Shown here piece after piece: positions 41,941 to 44,388 of a DNA stretch of 46,602 bases; position 1 is the stretch's first letter, and each line of letters opens with the position of its first letter. The stretch is from a virus. The position numbers and the translations under genes are program-made. The notes under the pieces were generated by a model, which was given only the letters and a program-made list of their open reading frames with translations, made no database searches and was not told the DNA's origin. Location of the stretch: UHGV virus genome UHGV-0186543; one strand, 5' to 3'.

Positions 41941-42092
41941 ATCAGTTCCTTTTTACCAGGCTTCAGTCAGAGTACACTATCATTTTACATTTAAATGTAC
42001 TTCCAAGCATCATGCTGTTAGTGCTGGATTATAACACTTGGCACCCGTATGTTTGGATAACAAACTGCGTATAATCCTTGTGAGTTGTGATG

Positions 42093-42198
42093 TCTGTTTC
42101 TCGCTCACAGCGGGTCTTCAGTTGTTCGTCCACTCTGTGCCAGGAGCGGACATTGATTATTCCTCACTGTAAAAATCTTAATGCTAACTAGTGGGAAC
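42093..42198 (+). repeat. R3 structured repeat
   Basis: Contains ctcgctcacagcg, hairpin GTCCACTC-tgtgcca-GAGCGGAC, gctaac and gtgggaac. TATAAT at 42070-42075 lies just upstream, so R3 would be the 5' leader of the nuclease operon. Confidence 0.8.
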
Positions 42199-42265
42199 TA
42201 TAAGTTGTCAATTGACATGATTGTGTATATTTTGCGATGAAAAGGTTAAATTTTGGTGCTGTAAT

Positions 42266-43072
42266 ATGGATATTAATGAATTTCCACCGGGAGTAATCGA
42301 ACATCTTGGCTGGTATGTCTACCGCCTGATTGACCCGAGAGATGGCAGTACGTTCTACGTAGGGAAAGGGAAAGGAAATCGTGTCTTTGCCCATATGCGT
42401 GGTGAGGTTGCTGCAGTGGATGATGATGATGAGTTACTGAGTAACAAACTCAAACAACTTCGGGAGATCAGATTAGCTGGTCTTGAGGTTATCCATGTTA
42501 TACATCGGCACGGTATGGCTGAAGAAAAAACGGCTTACGAAGTTGAAGCAGCTCTCATAGACGCCTATCCCGGCTTGACTAACATCATGAACGGTGCTGG
42601 CAGTAACGAGTTCGGTGCTGCACACATCAAAGAATTAATCGCTACGTACCAACCTGAAACAATTACGTTCCAACATAAGACCCTAATGATATCGGTTAAC
42701 AGAAGCTCAAAGGATATTGACCTCTATGATGCTGTACGTTTTAGCTGGCGTGTCAGCCTTGAACGCGCTCGTAAGGCTGAGGTCATACTGGCGACAGTAA
42801 GAGGAATTGTGAGGGGTGTATATATCGCAGATGAGTGGCTCAAGTCTACCCGTGAGAATTTTCCAGAGATACCCTCATGGGATGCGGATGATGAATTTGA
42901 AGCTACGCAAAGTTCCCGCTTTGGGTTCCGGGGTAGGGCTGCACCTCCTGAGATTACACAGCTTTATTTAGGTAAGAAGATCCCTGATGATCTCAGAAAA
43001 AAAGGTGCTATGTCTCCTGTGAGATATTCTCCCGGATTTGATTTCGGAATGGAACTGGATTTTAGATCGTAG
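42266..43072 (+). CDS. GIY-YIG nuclease family protein
   Basis: Start at ATG 42266 (the track start 42221 is TTG). [29 protein letters not shown] is a clear GIY ... YIG motif pair. The C-terminal ~170 aa are unassigned. Confidence 0.8.
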
Positions 43073-43152
43073 CCAATATATGGCAGTAATGAATATTTCG
43101 GGGATCGTGTTTGCCGCGGTCACGGTTACCATTATTAGTGTGCTGAACTGAA

Positions 43153-44388
43153 ATGACTAAGCGAAATAAAACCCCAAAATTTAACTTGGACAAAGCTCGC
43201 AAAAAAGAGATTCGCGCAGCCTTAACCAGCGTGGGTATGACCCCTCAACATGATGGCTGGGCGGATTTGTTTATGTACGCTTATACAGATGGCAGCAATT
43301 TAAACGGTTTGCAATTGGCCAAAGCCTTATCAGTGCATCCAACGCTGATAAATGGTTTATCGCGCGGCATCAAATTAAAACCAGAGAAAGCGCTCTCCAA
43401 AAAACGACCATCAAAACCTACGCTGGCCGATAAACGCCGCGAGGCCAAACAGAAGGTCAATATGGGCTGGGAAGCGCTGATTCGCACTATGCCTATGCAA
43501 AAGCCAGGCGCACGCAAAAACCCTGAAACAGAAGCCCTTTGGGAGAATGCCCGTCGCCGTGGCACGTCCCAGGCCAGCACGCCAGCATTTACGCCGACAA
43601 TCATCCCGCGCAAGGTTTCCGCTCAAATCAACACCGAATTACCAGGCCTGCAATCAACGCAGATGGAAACACCGAAACGGTATGATTCTGTGAGCATGAC
43701 ATCAAAAGTTACGACAAAGCTGGATAATCGCGTCCTACAGGATTTTCTGGCAAAACACATTCCACCCAGCCAGCGTCGTGATGTTGAGCTTTATATCCAC
43801 AAACACCAGCATGAAGCCACCACGACCATTGAACTGGTACAGCGGTACCTGGATGATCAGGAAGAAAAGCAAATCATCCGAGAAGCCGAGAAGCTGGCCG
43901 ATGTTGTTCCGGAACTGGTAGCCGATGATCGAATCATCATGTCGCAGGAAGTAGTGGTCGTCGTGGAGGAAGAGAAACCCGCGCCCGCGCTTGGCCAACC
44001 TGTCAAACTCCACAGTACCCGAACCGCGCAGCGCATCGTTGAGCAGCGCGACGCGACGGCGCATATGCAGTTTGTTGAATGGGTATGGAATAATTTTGCT
44101 GGCCGTTGCGCGGTGACTGGCTGGCAGAACGGCGAACGATTGCAAGCGGCGCACATTGAGCCAGCTACCTCAGGCAATTTTAGCGCTGATAATGGCCTGT
44201 TGTTGACTCCAACGATACACGACTTACTAGACGCAGAGCTGATGGCCGTCAACCCTGAAACAATGACCGTACATTTTGCCCCAGGTATTGAGCTCGGCGC
44301 GATGTTTGAAGGCAAAGTGATTGAGCCTAAATTATGGCCGCTGAACATGGCCGCGTTGGTTAAACGCTGGAAAGAACGGAAATTCTGA
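43153..44388 (+). CDS. protein with a C-terminal HNH (HNH_2-type) nuclease domain
   Basis: 411 aa. GRCAVTGWQNGERLQAAHIEPATSGNFSADNGLLLTPTIHDLLDAELMAV fits the HNH_2 pattern (C.vTG ... L.AAHI.P ... NGLLL ... H.lfD). The ~300-aa basic, low-complexity N-terminal region is unassigned. Confidence 0.75.
   Translation: MTKRNKTPKFNLDKARKKEIRAALTSVGMTPQHDGWADLFMYAYTDGSNLNGLQLAKALSVHPTLINGLSRGIKLKPEKALSKKRPSKPTLADKRREAKQKVNMGWEALIRTMPMQKPGARKNPETEALWENARRRGTSQASTPAFTPTIIPRKVSAQINTELPGLQSTQMETPKRYDSVSMTSKVTTKLDNRVLQDFLAKHIPPSQRRDVELYIHKHQHEATTTIELVQRYLDDQEEKQIIREAEKLADVVPELVADDRIIMSQEVVVVVEEEKPAPALGQPVKLHSTRTAQRIVEQRDATAHMQFVEWVWNNFAGRCAVTGWQNGERLQAAHIEPATSGNFSADNGLLLTPTIHDLLDAELMAVNPETMTVHFAPGIELGAMFEGKVIEPKLWPLNMAALVKRWKERKF

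Follow-up and report, generated by a model that had tools for sequence, protein, structure and literature searches.

The DNA examined here, which we call the window, is the whole 46,602-nucleotide stretch of virus genome UHGV-0186543, and our subject is a pair of adjacent nuclease genes that it carries on the forward strand. Gene 1 (42266-43072 (+), 268 aa from its ATG; the list of open reading frames, ORFs, gives a longer version with a TTG start at 42221) contains the motifs WYVYRL and FYVGKG and matches Pfam LEM-3_GIY-YIG (E=6.5e-13). Gene 2 (43153-44388 (+), 411 aa) matches Pfam HNH_2 (PF13391) over residues 319-367 (E=2.3e-8), and the gap between the two is 80 bp (43073-43152). ORF coordinates and Pfam matches bear out the two reading frames, their spacing and their two nuclease domains as described in a first-pass annotation made from the sequence alone, and its placement of the pair in an accessory island of a temperate phage also holds. 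The window is 99.6% identical to a lambdoid prophage present in E. coli E24377A, SE11 and four further complete genomes, and the island occupies the slot between the replication module (replication/ORF6N genes) on one side and the DUF1367, DUF1364 and Q-antiterminator genes on the other. Most island genes, both nuclease genes included, are oriented against phage transcription, early and late. A P2-like prophage hotspot, our first guess from the tail and capsid genes, was ruled out when the identical E24377A locus proved to be annotated as lambdoid. The same annotation proposed that the two genes form a two-component anti-phage or anti-plasmid module, or else that they are two free-standing homing endonucleases. 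We favor a different reading, to which we assign a probability of about 70%: these are two separate single-gene nuclease cassettes, set side by side by recombination within the accessory island of a lambdoid prophage.

Homology to experimentally characterised proteins shows gene 1 to be CMoRE/PD-T4-3, a type IV restriction enzyme already known to work as a single gene. Half of a pair that had been said to match no named system does in fact carry a name. It matches the PADLOC model for PD-T4-3 (PDLC04031) with E=5.7e-138 over model positions 1-254 of 256 and, over residues 1-258, two CMoRE structures, PDB 9u7u_A from E. coli APEC O1 (E=9e-164) and 9u75_A from O157:H7 (E=4e-151). Known members of the family, first found in ECOR68, include these APEC O1 and O157:H7 enzymes (PDB 9U7U, 9U7Z, 9U75, 9U8D). 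CMoRE binds and cuts DNA containing 5-hydroxymethylcytosine (5hmC) or glucosyl-5hmC in the pattern CN11/N9G, and not DNA containing cytosine or 5-methylcytosine; it lowers the plating of T2, T4 and T6 by ~1e5 without abortive infection, and its active form is a tetramer (PMC12923530). The published structures place a GIYxY-YIG motif at Y17, Y19 and Y31, an acidic autoinhibitory loop between helices alpha2 and alpha3 that occludes the active site, and a C-terminal domain that holds the flipped-out modified base (PMC12923530). All CMoRE systems in a survey of 22,803 genomes (274 of 274) were single-component (PMC12923530), and single-gene function has been confirmed independently in a native host and for a distant homologue (PMC12366544 and further work).

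Gene 1 aligns with the 9U7U enzyme over residues 1-258 of 268 with scattered substitutions only. The three GIYxY-YIG tyrosines are all present at the published numbering, as is the acidic loop (DDDDE, within residues 50-59), and because these CMoRE features recur at the same positions, the ~170 C-terminal residues that had been called unassigned can be equated, on homology, with the published 5hmC/glucosyl-5hmC sensor domain. Its ratio of nonsynonymous to synonymous substitution rates (dN/dS) is 0.06-0.07. The protein differs from the characterised enzymes in one additional Asp in the acidic loop (DDDDE vs DD-DE) and in ten additional C-terminal residues, and the gene differs from the common E. 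coli CMoRE allele by ~11% nucleotide divergence. Given its close similarity to the tested APEC O1 enzyme, gene 1 would be expected to cleave 5hmC and glucosyl-5hmC DNA and to protect against T-even phages. Like other CMoRE genes it is carried on a prophage, and it belongs to a family that stands as a lone gene in most genomes; here and in a Citrobacter prophage, however, the HNH gene follows directly, an arrangement that has no description in the published single-component survey (PMC12923530).

Gene 2 is assigned by PHROGs to phrog_23050, a family of unknown function. Its N-terminal region had been described as long, basic and of low complexity. The first two terms stand, residues 1-190 having an isoelectric point of 10.2-10.7 with 36 K+R vs 15 D+E, but the region is not featureless: residues 10-70 are predicted as a four-helix domain (model confidence, pLDDT, about 85-90), followed by a basic linker with conserved short motifs (~aa 76-190), a helical middle domain (~aa 190-251), an acidic/hydrophobic linker and the HNH_2 His-Me finger (~aa 296-411). 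The HNH_2 motif residues are C319, H334, N347 and H356, and among 24 members of the HNH family C319, H334, G348, H356 and D360 are invariant and N347 nearly so. The overall dN/dS of 0.22-0.28 breaks down into 0.12-0.15 for the nuclease domain and 0.30-0.38 for the basic linker, with purifying selection in every segment and an intact ORF in every lineage. Because the N-terminal region is under purifying selection, linker included, this supposedly low-complexity stretch is functional protein.

Relatives that share this whole architecture are rare. A word-indexed search of 5.8 billion proteins returned 14 hits, only 5 of them full length, whereas an exhaustive HMMER search found 1468 proteins that share the C-terminal ~120-residue HNH_2 domain; among the best 150 of these 1468, about 10 also share residues 150-290 and, fragments of gene 2 itself aside, only one close homologue (P0003) shares residues 1-150. 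The HNH family alignment found no relative in a one-genome-per-species collection and, among viral contigs, near-identical copies of this prophage island only. Structural comparison added little: the full-length AlphaFold model is poor (mean pLDDT 62, with a badly modelled HNH core), and Foldseek of this poor model against the PDB was uninformative. Distant HNH_2-domain relatives are carried by ~230 large E. coli plasmids, one of which, pMCR1_025943 (locus L020, NZ_CP027202.2, 89104-92328), encodes two HNH_2-domain proteins of 271 and 285 aa, their genes ~1.5 kb from each other and close to a HipA toxin-antitoxin pair.

Several type IV, modification-dependent restriction enzymes are built on an HNH_2 domain, among them VcaM4I (PDB 6YEX), TagI and the ScoMcrA-type enzymes. 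Gene 2 resembles these enzymes in combining an N-terminal non-catalytic region with a C-terminal HNH_2 His-Me finger of motif C...AAH...NG...H, and in standing alone, with no methyltransferase, in a defence-island context. VcaM4I is also its best PDB sequence match, but the similarity is marginal (E=0.14), and modification dependence is only predicted for gene 2, in which we found no recognisable modification-reader domain (SRA, EVE, YTH, ASCH and the sulfur-binding domain were looked for). Within the His-Me finger superfamily, HNH_2 forms the branch of restriction enzymes, with AlwI, HphI and BbrI among its members (PMC5714182). Gene 2 belongs to the same Pfam catalytic family as these type IIS enzymes (group 6 of Jablonska et al. 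2017, PMC5714182), whose target recognition lies outside the His-Me finger (PMC5714182); unlike gene 2, they come with cognate methyltransferases. No methyltransferase domain was found among the island genes, and neither a cognate methyltransferase nor an immunity gene lies beside gene 2. Gene 2 is an uncharacterised stand-alone HNH_2 nuclease, a new member of that kind, and the lack of either companion gene makes it most likely modification-dependent or otherwise non-self-specific. By our inference it attacks foreign DNA as a second restriction-type nuclease, independent of gene 1.

The distribution of the two genes argues against a single system. Co-occurrence, on which the proposal of a two-component module had itself staked its case, was checked and is not consistent: of 5426 complete E. 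coli genomes, 120 contain CMoRE DNA, and in 6 of those 120 the HNH gene adjoins it. In the other 114, homology spans window positions 42136-43077 only, comprising the gene with 130 bp of upstream sequence and ending 5 bases past the stop codon; the upstream region itself (42136-42265) is ~89% conserved in these genomes. The CMoRE neighbours in UTI89 (locus L002; related loci are designated by L and a number), for instance, are a DUF262 gene, a DinI pseudogene and a small hypothetical gene, with no HNH gene. The full-length HNH gene was found by sensitive blastn only in the same six E. coli genomes. Four other locus types (L004/L005, L006, L010 and L011/L012) carry a relative that is 59-66% identical but no CMoRE gene, and one of these types occupies the replication-to-Q slot of another lambdoid prophage. 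CMoRE is present in 2 of the 6 contexts of the close HNH family, and more distant HNH relatives have unrelated neighbours, including McrBC and two methylases. We also ruled out a conserved partner, for example an immunity protein, encoded after the HNH gene: the downstream proteins of six lineages are mutually unrelated. The two genes also differ in guanine-plus-cytosine (GC) content (45.8% for CMoRE vs 51.0% for the HNH gene) and have opposite skews, which marks them as having different origins. Taken together with the junction scar described next, the CMoRE distribution, the HNH distribution and the differing composition lead us to reject a two-part system. What survives of the suggested anti-phage role is the half that concerns gene 1, a member of a proven anti-phage nuclease family lying in a defence island; a two-gene defence system does not.

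The 80-bp spacer preserves a record of how the genes came together. Positions 43080-43151 (+) encode 23 codons (MAVMNISGIVFAAVTVTIISVLN, then a stop) that align with the final 22 codons of an intact gene for a 153-aa FUSC_2-like membrane protein in L004 (5538-5999, ending in AIMRISGIVFGAVMATIFSVLL and a stop), where the HNH gene comes immediately after it. The stop codon of the relic ends one base before the HNH start, a spacing identical to that in L004. The FUSC_2-like gene is intact only in L004/L005, a metagenomic lineage, and truncated in the window, L003, L006, L010 and L011, with longer 5'-truncated remnants retained in the last three. The recombination breakpoint can therefore be placed at ~43077-43080, where the CMoRE cassette ends (~43077) and the HNH cassette begins (~43080). 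A spacer made of what remains of a small membrane-protein gene shows that recombination brought the pair together, and the membrane protein and the HNH nuclease may originally have formed a two-gene module.

Once joined, the genes appear to have travelled together. A 3-kb block (window 42133-45130) that comprises CMoRE, the relic, the HNH gene and the gene for a predicted lipoprotein (44520-45080 (+), 186 aa, without a family match) is ~90.5% identical to a stretch of a Citrobacter freundii prophage, where it sits after tail-fibre and DinI genes, i.e. at another prophage position. Synonymous divergence (dS) is similar for the two nuclease genes (0.24 and 0.19). A terminator scan found no terminator-like site between genes 1 and 2, a promoter scan of the + strand gave no promoter-like site from 42233 to 44654, and the HNH gene here is without the ~530-bp leader seen in its relatives; since it has neither a terminator ahead of it nor a promoter-like site of its own, and its upstream leader is lost, the HNH gene is probably read through from the CMoRE promoter.

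Several observations weigh against our reading of two independent cassettes. Because the block occurs in two genera and the synonymous divergence of its nuclease genes is similar, these genes have evidently remained linked for a while, as a joint benefit would favour. They are plausibly co-transcribed, and functional interplay is conceivable. PADLOC returned only weak, generic HNH matches for gene 2 (6.5e-5) and no specific one, its defence role is one that we infer entirely, and it may be the one gene left from a former two-gene system, its activity in the present setting being uncertain. One alternative is a cooperating defence module, in which CMoRE and the HNH nuclease, possibly with the lipoprotein, would share a single promoter and be under joint selection, the HNH nuclease in one version extending or backing up CMoRE, for example by attacking phages that escape hydroxymethylcytosine recognition or by finishing DNA that CMoRE has nicked. 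The shared block at a different position in Citrobacter freundii, the missing terminator and the similar synonymous divergence speak for such a module, and the stop codon of the relic mini-ORF, one base before the HNH start, would permit translational coupling. We nevertheless regard this explanation as quite unlikely: CMoRE works alone in several laboratories and in its native host, 114 of 120 E. coli CMoRE loci are without the HNH gene, the HNH family is without CMoRE in most lineages, the junction is a visible recombination scar rather than a designed intergenic region, and both known contexts could stem from one fusion event. A single fusion event made a composite cassette that then persisted and moved.

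A second alternative is that gene 2 is not a defence gene at all, being either a silent or inactive remnant of the membrane-protein and HNH module or a nuclease that serves the prophage itself, for example by degrading host or competitor DNA during lytic growth. The restriction of an intact FUSC_2-like partner to L004/L005, the absence of a specific PADLOC match and the rarity of the family in the word-indexed search are all consistent with this. Against it, the ORF has stayed intact and under purifying selection over its whole length, also in lineages without the membrane gene; its neighbours are repeatedly defence genes (RES, GmrSD_N, a Cap4 nuclease, McrBC); and it is oriented against early and late phage transcription, as is typical of accessory genes expressed in the lysogen. 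On balance we consider a non-defence gene 2 unlikely.

Homing was the other suggestion made for the pair, namely that both genes are free-standing endonucleases that spread by cutting alleles lacking them. Among free-standing homing endonucleases of phages, such as I-TevI, SegA-G, MobA-E and I-HmuI, the two classic folds are GIY-YIG and HNH, and genes 1 and 2 share with these enzymes their nuclease superfamilies, carriage by phages and a patchy distribution, visible as presence/absence polymorphism of both genes among related elements. The resemblance does not extend to subfamily: CMoRE is a modification-dependent restriction enzyme without a strict sequence target, whose family, unlike homing endonucleases, has a demonstrated restriction function, and gene 2 is of the HNH_2 type rather than homing-type HNH or HNH_3, with no NUMOD or IENR DNA-binding modules found by domain scan. 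Nor do the genes interrupt any conserved gene or occupy a fixed insertion site; they lie in a shuffled accessory array rather than between conserved phage core genes, with neighbours that differ in every locus, and a megablast search of 50,697 phage genome records gave no match to the locus. The homing proposal is thus not upheld, and we consider it highly improbable.

The left boundary of the CMoRE cassette coincides with a repeat that we call R. The island holds three copies (39185-39242, 40384-40441 and 42093-42150, the last being R3), all of which contain the exact 13-mer CTCGCTCACAGCG (at 39192, 40391 and 42100), and the R pattern with <=2 mismatches matches the window 4 times (the three R copies and a chance match at 10876) vs 0.99 expected from shuffles. 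R3, with four GTCCGCT/AGCGGAC half-sites, forms a weak predicted hairpin (folding free energy -24.4 kcal/mol, z -1.8). It had been placed in a shared 5' leader of the two nuclease genes, downstream of a TATAAT hexamer (42070-42075 (+)). Hexamer and repeat both exist, but the leader does not stand, since homology to other CMoRE loci begins only at 42133/42136, inside the right arm of R3, and the promoter scan gave no -35 element to go with the hexamer, itself part of the left flank of R3. This left flank (ATAATCCTTGTGAGTTGTGATGTC) also precedes the R copy beside the homologue of a divergent 455-aa gene in L011, after which a different sequence and gene follow; because they recur beside that homologue, the TATAAT, the left flank and the left arm of R3 belong to the cassette of the 455-aa gene. 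R3 is therefore better described as a junction between the 455-aa gene cassette and the CMoRE cassette than as a leader, though it could still be transcribed through. A promoter-like sequence, TTGTCA-17-TATTTT (42205-42233 (+)), lies inside the upstream region that travels with CMoRE and, by consensus match only, is more likely the native CMoRE promoter.

The 455-aa ORF itself (40573-41940 (-), 35.7% GC) has no match in Pfam, NCBIfam, PADLOC or PHROGs. Its homologue, 94% identical, lies in an R-bounded array in L011 (11393-12757), there downstream of the HNH gene, and we regard the ORF as a candidate accessory or defence gene. The other two R copies of the island follow a 259-aa ORF (38316-39095 (+); phrog_19541, function unknown) and a 220-aa ORF (39574-40236 (+); 29% GC, with a weak match of the seven-transmembrane type).

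R is not confined to this prophage. Its consensus of ~75 nt consists of two direct copies of GTCCGCT-N10-AGCGGAC ~18 nt apart. R-like copies occur in 6 of the 7 intergenic gaps of L011 (at 948, 2725, 4004, 7317, 11216 and 12950) as well as in L003, L006, L010 and L013, and the R core was found in 61 genome stretches (L021-L081) from many Enterobacterales genera. It is detectable in 607 of 5426 E. coli genomes, at 1-3 copies per genome. Where 2-4 copies lie within 8 kb, all are co-oriented (23 of 23 loci). Many copies are half elements, with unrelated sequence beginning just past CTTCAG, and hybrid copies also exist, which indicates recombination within the element. Covariation was not above that of shuffled controls under either a long-hairpin or a two-hairpin model, and an apparent covariation of the outer arms (AACTTCC...GGAAGTT vs AATGTCC...GGACATT) was withdrawn after pair counts showed no excess over shuffles, so that conservation of R can be shown for the sequence but not for a structure. 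No Rfam family reaches its gathering threshold at the R repeats. The genes beside R copies include general accessory genes (LysR, GNAT, hydrolase and transporter genes) together with the defence genes PD-Lambda-1, DarTG, PD-T4-5 and NucC, and phage-type integrase domains are present in 2 of 141 flanking ORFs.

These properties invite comparison with integrons. R resembles attC sites in lying in nearly every gap of shuffled arrays, in being co-oriented within a locus and in having breakpoints inside the element. It differs from them in lacking canonical RYYYAAC/GTTRRRY cores, which are only approximated in some copies, in having no integron integrase nearby, in being flanked by genes in either direction and in a hairpin without covariation support. 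Repetitive extragenic palindromic (REP) elements differ from R in turn, which has 1-3 copies per genome and is confined to the above fraction of E. coli genomes. We know of no named element that fits R; candidates are a recombination linker, the site of an unidentified recombinase or a REP/PATE-like mobile hairpin pair. A more ambitious explanation would make R the site of an undescribed, integron-like cassette shuffling in Enterobacterales that operates without a known integrase and built the CMoRE-HNH-lipoprotein cassette, with the HNH protein as a new stand-alone anti-phage nuclease bearing a new kind of target-sensing N-terminus. The four half-sites, the constant co-orientation within an array and the breakpoints inside R are the features behind it; we consider the combination decidedly doubtful.

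If the pair is two neighbouring single-gene cassettes, as we prefer, each nuclease would work on its own. CMoRE would act as a homotetramer that recognises incoming T-even-type phage DNA by binding 5-hydroxymethyl- or glucosyl-hydroxymethyl-cytosine with its C-terminal domain and then cuts this DNA with its GIYxY-YIG domain; the acidic loop would spare unmodified host DNA, and no partner protein would be needed. Target selection by the HNH protein would be provided by its N-terminal helical domains and basic linker. Having lost its native upstream region, the HNH gene would be transcribed from the CMoRE promoter, making the pair an operon by accretion rather than a functional unit. A lysogen would thereby be protected in layers, and the 3-kb block could spread undivided. 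A claim to a new two-nuclease defence system fails on this account, CMoRE being already published and structurally solved. The phrog_23050 HNH_2 protein, intact, under purifying selection, repeatedly found among defence genes and equipped with a sensing region of no assigned family, is a clean candidate for a new single-gene, restriction-type defence. The scar and the boundary repeats document how prophage defence islands are assembled into composite blocks that then cross genera.

Genes for secreted products recur after the HNH gene. A second predicted lipoprotein is encoded downstream in the window (45534-46457 (+)) and has a C-terminal LprI (lysozyme-inhibitor-like) domain (E=3.2e-7); the genes that follow the HNH gene in other lineages also encode secreted proteins or lipoproteins, non-homologous to one another and in one case with a TolA-like domain. 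These lipoprotein genes may be superinfection-exclusion genes. A colicin-like unit of gene 2 and the lipoprotein, suggested by a disordered N-terminus and a C-terminal HNH domain, was ruled out by the HNH_2 type of the domain, the absence of an immunity gene and the lack of homology among the lipoproteins.

Upstream of CMoRE in UTI89, at ~7900-8000 of L002, lies a sequence that may correspond to the 3' half of a tRNA-Pro gene in reverse complement, and that would in that case be the remnant of an attachment site. Elsewhere in the window, Rfam places isrK (983-1057), the C4 antisense RNA (873-958) and its a1/b1 target (1018-1070) on the reverse strand within 873-1070, so that a C4 antisense-RNA immunity module known from P1/P7-type phages is present here in a lambdoid prophage.

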